Assembly: GCF_003018235.1 (NCBI RefSeq)
Contig: NZ_CP027437.1
Reading direction: 5' to 3' (one strand)
DNA length: 64,000 nucleotides
DNA from: Escherichia coli
GTDB lineage: Bacteria > Pseudomonadota > Gammaproteobacteria > Enterobacterales > Enterobacteriaceae
The translations under genes were made by a program, and so were the position numbers. Of the stretch, positions 10,536-48,759 are shown in pieces (positions within the stretch are counted from its first letter, which is position 1; each line of letters starts with the position of its first letter). The notes under the pieces were generated by a model. It made no database searches and was not told where the DNA came from. It saw only the letters and a list, made by a program, of their open reading frames with translations.

Positions 10536-10748
10536 ATGTCTAACAAAATGACTGGTTTAGTGAAATGGTTTAACCCTGAAAAAGGTTTTGGTTTCATCAC
10601 GCCGAAAGATGGCAGCAAAGATGTGTTTGTCCATTTCTCAGCAATTCAGAGCAACGATTTCAAAACATTAACTGAGAATCAGGAAGTTGAATTTGGTATT
10701 GAGAACGGACCTAAAGGTCCTGCCGCTGTTCATGTAGTGGCGCTTTGA
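10536..10748 (+). CDS. cspI: Cold-shock-like protein CspI
   Basis: 70-aa translation [26 protein letters not shown]... Confidence 0.9.
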
Positions 10749-10952
10749 GGTAGACAATATTACAAACCATATTCACTTTAGATGCCCGTGTTGTCATGGT
10801 TCCCAGTATAGAACATCATCTTTTGATGTTTCTGACATGAATCCTTTCGGGGCAAAATGTATCTTTTGTAAATCAATGATGATTACATTTGATAATATTT
10901 CACAATACTTAAATGCCAGCCGTCTGTCGTTGGATTTAAAAAAGTGAAAATG

Positions 10953-10976
10953 AAGGCTCCTTCGGGAGCTTTTTTG
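10953..10976 (+). terminator. Rho-independent terminator
   Basis: Hairpin gctcc-ttcg-ggagc followed by tttttt. Confidence 0.65.
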
Positions 10977-11019
10977 CTTGGTGTCTATTCGATGGATACT
11001 CACATACTACGGTAACATC

Positions 11020-11250
11020 ATGAAAAAAATCATAGTTTTTTTTAACTCTGAACCAGCAGTGGTAGTGCCAGCGATGACTGGAGTTAACACCATCATGCGT
11101 GAATATCCAAATGGCGAAAAAACACACCTTACTGTAATGGCCGCAGGGTTTCCATCTCTGACCGGAGATCATAAAGTCATTTATGTAGCCGCGGATCGAC
11201 ATGTTACTTCAGAAGAAATTCTGGAAGCAGCAATAAGGCTCTTGAGTTGA
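11020..11250 (+). CDS. Hypothetical protein (76 aa)
   Basis: ORF MKKIIVFFNSEPAVVV... on the late strand between cspI and gnsB; no clear SD. Confidence 0.3.
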   Translation: MKKIIVFFNSEPAVVVPAMTGVNTIMREYPNGEKTHLTVMAAGFPSLTGDHKVIYVAADRHVTSEEILEAAIRLLS

Positions 11251-11421
11251 TTTGATGCTATTGTATTGATAATTCAGGAAAATTCTCTTTGTCTGTTTGT
11301 GTAAAATTTAGACTATCGTATGTTGATTATTGCGATGTTTCATCTTATCTTTTACACGTTTGCACCATATAATCGACTTACTGTGTAACTGGAAAGTCAT
11401 AACAGGCTAAAAGAGGAAATG

Positions 11422-11595
11422 ATGAATATTGAAGACTTAAAAACAAAAACAGAAGCAGATATTTCTGAATATATAACAAAAAAAATTATTGAACTTAAGA
11501 AAAAGACCGGGAAAGAAGTTACCAGTATTCAGTTTACCGCACGGGAAAAAATGACGGGTCTTGAAAGCTATGATGTCAAGATTAATTTAATCTGA
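11422..11595 (+). CDS. gnsB: GnsA/GnsB-family small protein (57 aa)
   Basis: MNIEDLKTKTEADISEYITKKIIELKKKTGKEVTSIQFTAREKMTGLESYDVKINLI; SD aagagga; missing from the ORF track because under 60 aa. Confidence 0.8.
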   Translation: MNIEDLKTKTEADISEYITKKIIELKKKTGKEVTSIQFTAREKMTGLESYDVKINLI

Positions 11596-11623
11596 TGTAT
11601 TCAATAATAAAATTTATCCATAA

Positions 11624-11647
11624 ACCCCGTTTTTACGGGGTTTTGTT
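11624..11647 (+). terminator. Rho-independent terminator after gnsB
   Basis: Hairpin ccccgt-tttt-acgggg followed by tttt. Confidence 0.75.
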
Positions 11648-11746
11648 ATATTTGAATGGTTCCGAATATCTAAATCACAATTGTTGATGGTTTTTATTAA
11701 ACCAATGCAGTCCGGCTCAGGAGTGAGAGAAGCCGGACGTTATGGT

Positions 11747-12157
11747 TTAGCGTGGTAAGATCTGTGTAGTTTTCTGGATGCTTTCAGTAAATAGTAATGA
11801 GTTATCAAAGGCATAGTAATATCTTTGGTGTTCCTGGATATTTGTAACCCATCGGAAAACTCCTGCTTTAGCAAGATTTTCCCTGTATTGTTGAAATGTG
11901 ATTTCTTTTGATTTCAACTTATTATAGGAGGTCTCTATAAGATGTTTGTTTCTGGAGAATTTAACATTTACAACCTTTTTGAGTCCTTTTACTAACACTA
12001 TGTTGTCGTTTTCTAACACAATGTGAATATTATCTGTGGCTAAATAGTAAATATAAAGTGAGACATTGTGACGTTTTAGCTCAGAATAAAATAATTCACA
12101 GTTTAAATCTTTACGCACTTGATCGAATATTTCTTTAAAAATGGCAGCCTGAGCCAT
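11747..12157 (-). CDS. ydfO: DUF1398 protein YdfO (136 aa)
   Basis: Start taken at the second Met, which has SD gaagg; length matches K-12 YdfO. Confidence 0.75.
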
Positions 12158-12457
12158 TGGTAAACCTTCCATGTGATACGATGGCGCGTAGTTTGCATTA
12201 TCGTGTTTATTGTTTCAATCTGGTCTGACCTCTTTGTGTTTTGTTGATGATTTATGTCAAATATTAAGCCTGTTTTTAATGAATAGTGTTGATTGCGTAA
12301 CAAAGTTGAGCCTTGCTGGCATCCAGGAGGGATATGCAACCGACAGATGTATGTAAGGTCGATGTACTCAAACTTTCATACTTTTCCTCTTTTATGCAGA
12401 AAGATTTGAAGTAATATTTTAACCGCTAGATGACGAGCAAACGCATGGAGCGACAAA

Positions 12458-12664
12458 ATGAATAAAGAACAATCTGCTGATGAACTCTCGTTGGATCTGA
12501 TTCGTGTAAAAAATATGCTTAATAGCACCATTTCTATGAGTTACCCGGATGTTGTAATTGCATGTATAGAACATCAGGTGTCTCTGGAAGCATTCAGGGC
12601 AATTGAGGCAGCGTTGGTGAAGCACGATAAGAATTCGAAGGATTATTCCCTGGTGGTTGACTGA
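12458..12664 (+). CDS. Hypothetical small protein (68 aa)
   Basis: ATG with SD ggag 7 nt upstream; no recognisable family. Confidence 0.3.
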
Positions 12665-12999
12665 GCACCATAACTGCTAATCATTCAAACTATTTCACCT
12701 GTGACAGAGTCAATATCGCATTCTGTCACTGTCAGGCTAATACAGAGCTGCAATTCAACTACTGCAATGTCCTCGTAATTAGGTGAATTTACAATATCGT
12801 CCTGTTCGGATGCCGGCTGCATTGCTGAAGATGAGGCATTTATGGTTCGCATATTTTCCCCTCATGCTCGTCAGTCCTGTGCGTAGGAAGAAACAGGACA
12901 CTCACACTAATTTGTGTGGGCATGCTGTGATGTCCTTCTGAATTATTCCTATTCCATTATGTAAAGCGCTGTATCAGATGCTCGTCACGGCTGTCAGGC

Positions 13000-13100
13000 T
13001 GTCGGGTCCTCCCGGTGGGGGCCCCTGCCACGGGGCGGGAGCGTCGCGGAAAAAGGCTAGTTTTTGAAATTTTATTCGTCATCACCACTACTGTAATTGA
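13000..13100 (+). other. Putative cos site (cosN/cosB region) upstream of the terminase small subunit
   Basis: acggggcgggagcgtcgcgg...ttcgtcat resembles lambda cos acggggcggcgacctcgcgg...ttcgtcat at the equivalent position. Confidence 0.45.
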
Positions 13101-13218
13101 TTGATATTACAGTTGTTTTATTTTTATGGTGTCGATTCTGATTGTTTTTTGTTCATCACTAACACCGTTTGCCTAAAGTTGTTCGCAAGATGCATGTTTA
13201 AAACATTCTGGAGCGGGT

Positions 13219-13713
13219 ATGGATCGAGAGTTAAAAAATCTGACGCTGAATATCAGTCAACTGGCGGCATTGTCAGGTGTACATCGCCAGACTGCTGCGG
13301 CAAGGCTGCAAAATCTACCCGTTGCAGGGGGGCATGAAAGCAACCTCAAGCTTTATCGGGTGGTTGATATTGTGTCGGCATTTCTGGCATTACCACCGCC
13401 GGTTGCAGAAGGCGAAATGGACGCGCATGAGCGCAAAGCCTGGTATCAGTCTGAACGTGAGCGTCTTAAGTTCGAACAGGAAACGGCACAACTCATTCCG
13501 GCCAGTGATGTCAGACGGGAGTTTGCCATCTGGGCAAAAGCGGTCGTGCAGGTGCTGGAGACATTACCGGATATTCTTGAACGTGACTGCGGTCTGCAGC
13601 CTGCCGCTGTGAGCCGTGTTCAGTCCATTATTGATGATCTGCGCGATCAGATAGCCCTGCGGGTGACTGAAGCAGGTGCGGATGATGAGGAGGAATTACA
13701 GCAGGAGGAGTAA
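13219..13713 (+). CDS. Terminase small subunit (Nu1/Noh family)
   Basis: 164 aa with N-terminal HTH (LNISQLAALSGVHRQTAA); stop overlaps the large-subunit start. Confidence 0.8.
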   Translation: MDRELKNLTLNISQLAALSGVHRQTAAARLQNLPVAGGHESNLKLYRVVDIVSAFLALPPPVAEGEMDAHERKAWYQSERERLKFEQETAQLIPASDVRREFAIWAKAVVQVLETLPDILERDCGLQPAAVSRVQSIIDDLRDQIALRVTEAGADDEEELQQEE

Positions 13714-15815
13714 TGCTGAATCAGGAAACCGCAAAGGCAGCACGAACCGATTCAGGTTATATCCTTCGCGCACCGAGACGAATGCGGGTTGCTGATGCCG
13801 TTGCTCAGTATATGCGGGTGCCCATGGGGGCAGGGAACTCAGTCCCGTGGGATCCGCTGGTGGCACCGTATGTTATTGAGCCTATGAACTGCCTGGCCTC
13901 GCGTGAATACGACGCAGTGATATTTGTTGGCCCGGCACGAACCGGCAAGACTATCGGCCTGATTGACGGCTGGGTGATTTACAACGTGATTTGCGATCCT
14001 GCTGATATGCTGATCATTCAGATGACGGAGGAAAAAGCCCGCGAACACTCCAAAAAACGACTCGCCAGAACGTTTCGCGTCAGCCCGGAAGTGGTCAGTC
14101 GCCTGAGTCCGAACAAAAATGACAACAACGTTTATGACAGAACATTCCTTGCTGGCAACTACCTGAAAATCGGCTGGCCGTCAGTCAATATCATGTCTTC
14201 ATCAGATTATAAATGCGTGGCGCTGACGGATTATGACCGTTTTCCGGAAGATATTGATGGTGAGGGGGATGCCTTCTCTCTTGCCTCAAAACGTACCACC
14301 ACATTTATGTCCAGTGGTATGACGCTGGTGGAGAGTTCCCCCGGCAGGGATGTGAAGGATGTGAAATGGCGACGGACTTCACCGCATGAGGCTCCACCAA
14401 CCACGGGGATCCTGTCGCTCTATAACCGTGGCGATCGCCGTCGCTGGTACTGGCCCTGTCCACACTGTGGTGAGTATTTTCAGCCCTGCGGCGATGTGGT
14501 TGCTGGTTTCCGTGATATTGCCGATCCTGTGCTGGCAAGTGAGGCGGCTTATATTCAGTGTCCTTCCTGTTCAGGACGGATTTTGCCTGAACAAAAACGC
14601 GAGCTGAACGGACGTGGGGTCTGGTTACGGGATGGTGAATCCATCAATGCAGATGGCAGTCGTTATGGTGATCCCCGGCGTTCACGTATTGCGTCATTCT
14701 GGATGGAGGGGCCGGCAGCTGCTTATCAGACACTCTCGCAACTCGTTTACAAACTGCTTACTGCAGAACAGGAATACGAGACAACCGGAAGTGAAGAGAC
14801 ACTCAAGACGGTTATCAATACCGACTGGGGATTACCTTATCTTCCCCGCGCCAGCATGGAGCAACGAAAAAGTGAATTGCTTGAGCAGCGGGCAGAGCCA
14901 GTTCCTTCCCGCAGTGTGCCGGATGGCGTTAATTTCCTTGTGGCGACAGTGGATGTGCAGGCGGGACGTCATCGCCGTTTTGTGGTTCAGGTAACGGGCT
15001 ATGGCAGCCGTGGCGAACGCTGGATTATTGATCGTTACAACATCACGCAGTCATTGCGCGGTGACAGCGACGGGGAGAGCCAGCGAATTGATCCGGCCAG
15101 CTATCCGGAAGACTGGGATGTCCTGCTGACGGATGTTTTTCATAAAAGCTGGCCGCTGGCCTCCGATCCTTCTCAACAAATGCGACTGATGGCAATGGCG
15201 GTGGACTCCGGCGGTGAAGACGGGGTCACTGATAATGCCTATAAATTCTGGCGTCGTTGCCGTCGTGATGGCCTTGGTAAACGTATTTACCTGTTTAAGG
15301 GCGACAGCATCCAGCGCGCAAAACTGATCACCCGTACATTCCCTGATAACACCGGACGAACGGGCCGACGGGCGCAGGCCGCAGGTGATGTACCGCTCTG
15401 GCTTCTTCAGACGGATGCCCTGAAAGACCGGGTGAATAACGCGTTATGGCGTGACTCGCCAGGTCCCGGCTATGTGCATTTCCCTGACTGGCTGGGGAGC
15501 TGGTTTTACGACGAACTGACGTATGAAGAGCGGAGCAGTGACGGGAAATGGAGTAAGCCGGGTCGCGGTGCCAACGAAGCTTTTGACCTGATGGTGTATG
15601 CCGAGGCTCTGGTCATTCTGCATGGATACGAAAAGATCCGCTGGCCGGATGCACCGGAGTGGGCGAGCCGGGAAACCTGGCTGGAGTGTGTCCCGGACAG
15701 TACCGAACCGTCACCCACACCGGAACCGGTATCCACGCCTGTTAAAAAACAAAAACGGAAGAAAACAGTAACTGACGATGTTAACCCCTGGCTGACTTCC
15801 GGAGGATGGTTATGA
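13713..15815 (+). CDS. Terminase large subunit (lambda gpA-like)
   Basis: 700 aa with Walker A VGPARTGKT and C-terminal nuclease region. Confidence 0.92.
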   Translation: MLNQETAKAARTDSGYILRAPRRMRVADAVAQYMRVPMGAGNSVPWDPLVAPYVIEPMNCLASREYDAVIFVGPARTGKTIGLIDGWVIYNVICDPADMLIIQMTEEKAREHSKKRLARTFRVSPEVVSRLSPNKNDNNVYDRTFLAGNYLKIGWPSVNIMSSSDYKCVALTDYDRFPEDIDGEGDAFSLASKRTTTFMSSGMTLVESSPGRDVKDVKWRRTSPHEAPPTTGILSLYNRGDRRRWYWPCPHCGEYFQPCGDVVAGFRDIADPVLASEAAYIQCPSCSGRILPEQKRELNGRGVWLRDGESINADGSRYGDPRRSRIASFWMEGPAAAYQTLSQLVYKLLTAEQEYETTGSEETLKTVINTDWGLPYLPRASMEQRKSELLEQRAEPVPSRSVPDGVNFLVATVDVQAGRHRRFVVQVTGYGSRGERWIIDRYNITQSLRGDSDGESQRIDPASYPEDWDVLLTDVFHKSWPLASDPSQQMRLMAMAVDSGGEDGVTDNAYKFWRRCRRDGLGKRIYLFKGDSIQRAKLITRTFPDNTGRTGRRAQAAGDVPLWLLQTDALKDRVNNALWRDSPGPGYVHFPDWLGSWFYDELTYEERSSDGKWSKPGRGANEAFDLMVYAEALVILHGYEKIRWPDAPEWASRETWLECVPDSTEPSPTPEPVSTPVKKQKRKKTVTDDVNPWLTSGGWL

Positions 15816-47571: not shown

Positions 47572-48759
47572 TCAACAAAGCGCGGGCTGCCCCCACGGTC
47601 TTGCACGAATTCCTTTTAACATCAGCACCCACGCAGCAACGATCACCAACGCTAAGATGATAAACAGCGAGAAAGGCGGCAGACTGGTAAGTACTATGCC
47701 ACTCACTAATGGGTTAATCGCCGCACCAAGCCAGCCTAAAGACTGGGCGGAAAAATAGCTGGCTTTCATTCCTGGCGGTGCAATATGGTCAATCAACATA
47801 TACTCGCCCGGCGCATAAATGATTTCACCGACAGTAAATACCGCAGCTGACATACCCCACAATAGCAGGCTGTTGCCGGAAAAAATAAAACCAACCAGAC
47901 CGATGACGAAACAGAGGGTGCCTGCTGTCATCAGCGCGCGGATGTTAGCCGGGTTAAGGCGGCGGCCCACGGAATATTGCAACGTAACCACCATGGCAGC
48001 ATTCACCGGAAGAACAACCGCGACCACCTTTTCGGCAAAATCCCCATCAGCAATCACCATCACATATTGTGAAATGCACGAGGCAAATGCGCCGCTAACA
48101 AAGGAAGCCAGAAAACCAGAGCAGGTAAACCACAACAGTGCTTTATCTTGTAATAAAACTTTCGGCGACCAGGCACTGCCTGTTTCCGTGGCGATGATTT
48201 TCTCGCTGCGCTTTACCCAAATTTGAATGAAAAGCATGGGAAACGCGGAACAGATAGCTGCCAGCCAGAAGGGCAGATTGATGCTCTGCATCACCAACAA
48301 CGTGCCGAGCGGCGGACCGATGGTCCAGCCAATGTTTAGCATGGTGTAGTTGATTGAGAAGATTTTCGTTTTGCTGGTGGACGAAAGATTGTCGGCAAAC
48401 CAGGCTTTCAACACGGTAGCAAAAACGGAATAGGCGCAGTTAATGAGGGCAAAAAAGAGCACCACCAGCGTCACGTTATTCACTAAAGGAATGGCAATAA
48501 AACCGCTGGCGAAGGCGGTAATTGCCAGTAACATATAGCGTTTCTTGTCGAACTTATCCGCCAGGATACCAAAACCGAGGCTAAAAACGACGCCAATAGT
48601 GAGCGCAATTGTCATCGCATAACCGATTAGATCGACACTCAGGTTGTACTGGCGACTCAAGTAAATGGTCATAAACGGCAGCGTAGCGCCGCGTCCGATG
48701 GTTAATAACAACGACGAGGCAAGAAGGGCGCTGGTAGAGCGTCGGAGGGATAAGTTCAT
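47572..48759 (-). CDS. ydeE: MFS transporter YdeE
   Basis: 395 aa, about 12 transmembrane segments. Confidence 0.85.
   Translation of the reverse strand: MNLSLRRSTSALLASSLLLTIGRGATLPFMTIYLSRQYNLSVDLIGYAMTIALTIGVVFSLGFGILADKFDKKRYMLLAITAFASGFIAIPLVNNVTLVVLFFALINCAYSVFATVLKAWFADNLSSTSKTKIFSINYTMLNIGWTIGPPLGTLLVMQSINLPFWLAAICSAFPMLFIQIWVKRSEKIIATETGSAWSPKVLLQDKALLWFTCSGFLASFVSGAFASCISQYVMVIADGDFAEKVVAVVLPVNAAMVVTLQYSVGRRLNPANIRALMTAGTLCFVIGLVGFIFSGNSLLLWGMSAAVFTVGEIIYAPGEYMLIDHIAPPGMKASYFSAQSLGWLGAAINPLVSGIVLTSLPPFSLFIILALVIVAAWVLMLKGIRARPWGQPALC

Follow-up and report, generated by a model that had tools for sequence, protein, structure and literature searches.

Positions 13004-13218 of the window (the whole stretch analysed, 64,000 nucleotides of Escherichia coli DNA) very probably form the lambda-type cohesive-end packaging site of a Qin-like lambdoid prophage with Gifsy-2-type head genes, as judged from sequence features and gene order. 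The cos site is an ordinary one of an already known kind, and it was classed as an instance of that kind because of the variation described by the Feiss laboratory and the precedents of Gifsy-1, mEp213/LLS and Cr-LKS3. An initial annotation of the region had proposed cohesive-end packaging with a 12-nt overhang from a lambda-type cos, a proposal that appears well supported by homology and context. We infer the nick positions, the protein-DNA contacts and the activity of the prophage.

Position and composition of the cos site

Positions 13000-13100 read ...ctgtcGGGTCCTcccggtgggggcccctgccACG GGGCGGGAGCGT CGCGGaaaaaggctagtttttgaaattttaTTCGTCATcaccac..., and 13004-13049 can be written GGGTCCT-N22-ACG/GGGCGGGAGCGT/CGCGG, with slashes at the predicted nicks (Table 1). 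The string quoted in the initial annotation was recovered where it had been placed, at 13030-13057 (acggggcgggagcgtcgcggaaaaaggc) with ttcgtcat at 13075-13082, and the lambda string quoted beside it agrees with NC_001416. The cosQ-like heptamer, absent from that annotation, is separated from the left nick by a spacer of 22 nt, compared with 23 nt in lambda. GGGTCCT is what we take to be lambda cosQ (lambda 48473-48479).

Table 1. Features of the proposed cos site and the adjoining terminase genes (offsets past the left nick in brackets)
Feature	Position	Strand	Remarks
cosQ-like heptamer GGGTCCT	13004..13010	+	proposed packaging-termination signal; identical to lambda heptamer, same place
cosN CCACG/GGGCGGGAGCGT/CGCGG	13028..13049	.	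predicted nicks; matches lambda ACG/GGGCGG and T/CGCGG
I2-like segment, phased A/T tracts	13050..13075	+	A5 13050-13054, T5 13061-13065, AAATTTT 13067-13073
cosB site 1 TCGTCATCACCAC	13076..13088 (+44..+56)	+	proposed R3-equivalent site for small terminase; putative binding
Inverted repeat I3, 11-nt arms	13087-13116		encloses IHF-like site; 8-nt perfect arms 13090-13097 / 13106-13113
IHF-like site TATCAATCAATTA	13094..13106 (+62..+74)	-	fits consensus WATCAANNNNTTR
cosB site 2 GTGTCGA (reverse complement TCGACAC)	13129..13135 (+97)	-	inverted heptamer copy
cosB site 3 TCATCAC	13153..13159 (+121)	+	direct heptamer copy
Small terminase, 164 aa, Pfam DUF1441	13219..13713	+	Pfam E = 2.7e-41
Large terminase, 700 aa, gpA family	13713..15815	+	Pfam GpA_ATPase E = 1.6e-71, GpA_nuclease E = 5.2e-86

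Nicks are predicted at 13032/13033 on the top strand and 13044/13045 on the bottom strand, which would leave the 12-nt 5' overhang GGGCGGGAGCGT (13033-13044), its length and both nick sites resting on homology. As first noted, the overhang is a variant of that of lambda; it differs at four positions (7 C>G, 8 G>A, 9 A>G and 11 C>G) instead of the about five first counted, all of them in the right half, bp 7-11. The partial two-fold symmetry of cosN, a further likeness to lambda, covers 8/16 and 12/22 bp here and 10/16 and 10/22 bp in lambda. Phased A/T tracts follow cosN as they do in lambda, with the GCTA and AAATTTT of the I2-like segment in register with lambda.

Phages of the lambda-like class described by the Feiss laboratory carry 12-base 5' extensions similar to those of lambda, with natural variation in bp 7-12, a conserved left half and flanking CG, and a highly conserved 7-bp cosQ (PMC4669245). 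The window carries the sequence elements of that class, namely a conserved 7-bp cosQ upstream of cosN, the left half GGGCGG, and a CG dinucleotide beside each nick, 12 bp apart (PMC4669245). Its cos also lies just upstream of the small- and large-terminase genes, the large subunit being of the gpA family as in lambda. The small-terminase ATG was found 174 bp past the last overhang base, in line with the "about 170 bp" of the initial annotation, and 186 bp past the left nick (+187; 191 in lambda).

The 64-kb window matched the pattern GGGTCCT-N(18-26)-ACGGGGCGG-N5-TCGCGG once, at 13004-13049; 100 shuffles that preserved dinucleotide frequencies gave no match. A promoter and terminator scan of 12600-13400 gave nothing informative.

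Two minor features overlap or adjoin the site. An 8-bp tandem repeat at 12989-13004 (GGCTGTCA GGCTGTCG) abuts cosQ and is present in three copies in Tritos, a difference in copy number that suggests slippage. A 43-codon ORF on the minus strand (12957-13088) spans cosQ, cosN and site 1; equivalents are annotated as hypothetical protein in vB_EcoS-569R4 (41 aa), mEp460 and several other phage records, and the ORF is probably not a gene.

The putative cosB region and the terminase genes

The 174 bp from cosN to terS (13045-13218) were read by eye for the lambda R-site sequence CGTTTCC.TTCT and none was visible; the region is assigned as putative cosB by its position and apparent architecture. The initial annotation had likened the site to lambda "cosN/cosB". 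The likeness held for cosN and was not supported for cosB as a resemblance of sequence, the small terminase being DUF1441, no R-site sequence being visible and the shared 8-mer lying within chance. That 8-mer, TTCGTCAT, had been offered as parallel to lambda; it lies at +43..+50 here and at +67..+74 in lambda, 23 bp off register, and an 8-mer was shared in 55% of shuffles of the two cosB regions, those of the window and of lambda (P about 0.55). It was rejected as a counterpart of lambda cosB.

Candidate small-terminase sites were instead provided by the heptamer TC[AG][AT]CA[CT] (TCRWCAY), found direct at +44..+57, inverted at +96..+99 and direct at +120..+123. Among 30 unique cosB sequences with DUF1441 small terminases, 112 copies were observed at these three fixed positions against 4.7 expected, for a motif defined post hoc from the same sequences, which share descent. 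A (Y)CA triplet run occupies +44..+57 in all cosB types with a DUF1441 small terminase. The inverted copy at +96..+99 and the direct copy at +120..+123 occur in most subtypes, the latter also in Fels-1 and Gifsy-2, and in Gifsy-2 the equivalent of site 2 pairs with site 3 as a perfect 9-bp inverted repeat. Site 1 of the window falls where R3 lies in lambda (bp 50-65) and in N15 (bp 48-60; PMC9026076). Repeats of site 1 within single sequences were not significant in most subtypes (p 0.03-0.98); the basis of the cosB reading is the conserved position of the sites from one subtype to another.

Between sites 1 and 2, positions 13094-13106 read TAATTGATTGATA, the sole perfect match to the IHF consensus in the 64-kb window. 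Such a match arose in 1.8% of shuffles of the 174-bp region, and a perfect match at +62 or +64 was present in 91 of 126 unique relatives. The candidate sites fall in the order direct, IHF, inverted, direct, as in lambda, and the region appears to be built on the plan of lambda cosB, its layout mirroring R3-I1-R2(inverted)-R1. The inverted repeat I3 was also considered as a small-terminase site. It is restricted to the cosB type of the window and was set aside because types that lack it have nearly the same putative recognition helix.

The small- and large-terminase genes overlap by one base. For the small terminase, Pfam returned DUF1441 only and not Phage_Nu1, BLASTP against Nu1 gave no match, and the window falls outside the Nu1-type class defined by Phage_Nu1 together with cosB CGTTTCC.TTCT. 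An hhalign comparison with a Nu1 alignment was colinear over 141 columns (probability 52%, E = 1.5e-4, from shallow alignments). The AlphaFold model (pLDDT 74.7) has an N-terminal strand-helix-helix-wing-strand-helix arrangement, for which the best domain-level Foldseek matches were the terminase or Rpp winged-helix domains 6hn7_B, from a study of packaging redirection by PICI Rpp, and 7lwr_A, from a study of viral DNA-packaging motor assembly; these were weak (E >= 0.026) and were followed by MerR-type winged helices, also with weak E-values. Foldseek with the full-length model returned weak E-values only, and phmmer against PDB sequences returned nothing meaningful. We read the small terminase as a distant relative or analogue of Nu1, outside the Nu1 family.

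Identity of the large terminase is 24.6% with lambda gpA, 87% with that of Tritos and 99.4% with those of other prophages; its gene is followed by a lambda-family portal and then a ClpP-capsid fusion. In a near-identical E. coli genome this neighbourhood is annotated as a lambdoid, Qin-like prophage in which the head and tail genes form a full row, and the named genes include ydfA, hokD, rem, cspB, essD, rrrQ, rzpQ, cspI and gnsB. The prophage around the site appears to be complete. An accessory block at 10536-12664, between the lysis genes and cos, holds CspI, a DUF1398 gene (YbcV-like, minus strand) and a YbcW-like ORF, to which the near-identical genome adds ynfQ, ynfN and gnsB; the arrangement is the same as in K-12 Qin and DLP12.

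Distribution and comparison with related cos sites

The cos region was found almost unchanged in 2112 of 5426 complete E. coli genomes, and it matches a set of phages too. The cdtI (AB285204) and Tritos (OV696610, linear) records start exactly at GGGCGGGAGCGT and end in ...CTGCCACG (CCACG). Both record starts may have been set by analogy with lambda, as opposed to end sequencing; the Tritos paper gives the boundaries of the attachment site and does not state the basis of the cos start. For Ayreon, whose small terminase is identical to that of the window, a cos was only "expected" by the authors, in the 1 kb or so that precedes the small-terminase gene (PMC5764929). A literature search with the exact 12-mer matched unrelated eukaryotic work only.

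A pattern scan of IMG/VR, anchored on GGGTCCT, returned 128 sites with a spacing of 22 or 23 nt, among which the lambda overhang was commonest (73) and that of the window second (23), the latter always accompanied by a large terminase 91-100% identical to that of the window or of Tritos. GGGTCCT is present in all 128 by construction, because it was the fixed anchor of the pattern. Independently of that anchor, it was at least 90% conserved in 126 unique regions, and it was present in 11 of 12 sequences of a BLAST-fetched alignment (the exception given being the window's own), in which lambda is one base out of register. A second IMG/VR scan, with the 24-mer GGGCGGGAGCGTCGCGGAAAAAGG, for contigs ending at the nick returned 120 loci, none of them at a terminus; many of these contigs have isolate-genome-style identifiers, which suggests prophage origin.

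Throughout the 126 unique regions, all of which carry this cosN, the sequence was conserved from cosQ through +33 with any cosB type, +1..+24 having been fixed by the search pattern and +25..+33 left free. Beyond about +34 the regions fell into discrete cosB types that track the type of small terminase: TCGTCATCACCAC marks the window type, GGCCACCATCATC the type with an 86%-identical small terminase and GGCGGCGGCAGCA that of cdtI/Tritos (42% identical), the large terminases of these types being 87-99% identical. In diverged relatives, conservation is higher in the cos core than in the sequence on either side of it.

In cdtI/Tritos, cosN and the first 33 bp past the left nick are identical to those of the window and the cosQ-cosN spacer is near-identical, whereas cosB diverges completely from about +34 and the putative recognition helix reads HRDTVKKR against HRQTAAAR in the window. 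The relation parallels that between lambda and phage 21, which share cosN and differ in cosB and small-terminase specificity. Gifsy-1, counted among phages with lambda-like cohesive ends (PMC4669245), has the same cosQ heptamer and an overhang, GGGCGGCAGCGT, that differs from that of the window at position 7 only, but it has a Nu1-type small terminase, lambda/21-type head genes and the right flank CGCAGG.

The head module of the window is also that of mEp213/LLS, Fels-1 and Gifsy-2, which have in common with it a DUF1441 small terminase, a gpA-type large terminase and a fused protease-capsid gene; in this group the triplet run of site 1 and the heptamers of either orientation keep the offsets of the window, Gifsy-2 with the inverted and second direct copies and Fels-1 with the whole layout. 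A 12-nt overhang GGGCGGCGCGCT was inferred for mEp213 and LLS, which have the Gifsy-2-type head module (PMC12315714). The small-terminase ATG of mEp213 is at +130, and its overhang differs from that of the window; Fels-1 differs in its overhang GGGCGGCAGCGG, and Gifsy-2 in the 14 nt, GGTGGCTTCGGGCT, that separate its CACG and CGCGG flanks. Fels-1 (L263 305-350) and Gifsy-2 (L262 290-345) both have GGTACTC where the cosQ GGGTCCT is expected. Together with the 14-nt stretch, this indicates that neither cosQ nor overhang length is invariant in this terminase clade.

Within the same large-terminase clade the distance between the conserved flanks is 9 nt (mEp460_4F5, Flotzy), 10-11 nt (Stx2 phages, VT1-Sakai) or 14 nt (Gifsy-2), so that flank spacing is not fixed. 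Cohesive 5' ends of 9 nt that begin with GGGC are reported for the cyanophage Cr-LKS3 (PMC9303873), the small terminase of which shows 40% identity to that of the window. In mEp460_4F5 (L007/L008) and Flotzy (L021) there are 3 nt fewer between the CG flanks than in the window (GGGCGGGAG/CGCGG and GGGCGGCGC/CGCGG), a difference that reflects either misassembly at the physical ends of the DNA or a natural overhang of 9 nt like the one reported for Cr-LKS3. The last 300 bases of a further record, mEp460_ev081 (L009), contain a tandem duplication of about 96 bp of I2-cosB from GGCTAGTTTTTG onward, which may represent a genuine duplication of cosB or an error of assembly.

With flank spacing so variable (9, 10-11 or 14 nt; 9 nt in Cr-LKS3, PMC9303873) and the large terminase so distant from lambda gpA, a functional cos could have nicks other than 12 nt apart or off the predicted bonds, its overhang shifted in length or position. 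We consider this unlikely, since exactly 12 bp separate the flanks here, the distance found in lambda and Gifsy-1, the CG dinucleotides marking the lambda nick sites are present (PMC4669245), and the cdtI and Tritos records open exactly at the predicted left nick.

It is less probable still that the cos is an inherited, disused one in a prophage unable to make particles, its conservation reflecting recent descent. The window has full-length small and large terminases, a portal, a protease-capsid fusion and a complete tail row; its large terminase is nearly identical to those of other prophages, and the same small terminase occurs in the plaque-forming isolates Ayreon (PMC5764929) and mEp460. 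Recent descent also fits poorly with a cos core that is more conserved than its flanks in diverged relatives. Set against this, defective lambdoid prophages are numerous in E. coli, the gene neighbourhood is similar to that of Qin, a cryptic prophage of K-12, and remnants with this cos but without the large terminase exist (L013). Chance likeness to lambda cos, or headful (pac) packaging, is effectively refuted: the shared motifs are short, but no shuffle matched, the same composite site precedes terminase genes in more than 100 viral contigs, and gpA-family large terminases are of the cohesive-end type, an argument also made in PMC12315714.

Proposed packaging model, modularity and satellite-like elements

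On the preferred reading, a lambda-type cohesive-end site, packaging would proceed as follows. After excision and concatemer formation, the DUF1441 small terminase would bind cosB, as in lambda, at the candidate sites 1 (direct), 2 (inverted) and 3 (direct), with IHF bending the DNA at the IHF-like site between the first two (Table 1). The bend would bring a pair of large terminases of the gpA type to cosN, which is partly symmetric, and these would nick the two strands at the predicted positions to give 12-nt 5' overhangs, with GGGCGGGAGCGT at the left end; rejoined ends would read CCACGGGGCGGGAGCGTCGCGG. Packaging would then run rightward, with the small-terminase gene entering first, and would end at the next cos, a step expected to need cosQ, cosN and the A/T-tract segment.

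With the position of cos known, linear genomes of this prophage family can be opened at the correct point, a result of little import beyond annotation. The position also predicts the virion DNA ends to be seen in induction or virome data, and it flags the cos-spanning 43-codon ORF in phage records as probably spurious. The lambda cosQ-cosN design persists in a terminase lineage about 25% identical to that of lambda, together with several cosB/small-terminase modules.

Tentatively, and with somewhat more doubt than confidence, we suggest that DUF1441 small terminases form a second set of packaging specificities on the plan of lambda, in which the large terminase reads a shared cosQ-cosN-I2 unit and interchangeable cosB/small-terminase modules, each with its own R-site code, attach to that unit at about +34. 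The window, L010, L013 and cdtI/Tritos types would exemplify such modules, and the code of the window would be TCRWCAY, occurring direct, inverted and direct, plus the IHF site. A modular cos of this sort bears on cross-packaging between co-resident prophages and satellites, and satellite-like elements may exploit the arrangement.

Two IMG/VR contigs, L091 and L203, carry two complete cos sites of different cosB types flanking a capsid gene of their own. The satellite-like element was observed in L091 (4265-10826), in L203 and in L013 (1056-3996), the last from E. coli GN06489 by thiM/thiD. Its order is a D5-type primase, SSB, a complete cos with a cdtI/Tritos-type cosB, an 80-aa ORF, a ClpP-capsid fusion, a second cos in the same orientation with another cosB type, a DUF1441 small terminase and a small ORF; neither a large terminase nor a portal was observed there. 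The element may parasitise the packaging of phages similar to the prophage of the window. Every cosQ in L091, L203 and L013 is closely preceded by a short T-run (GCC/CGG + TTTTTT).
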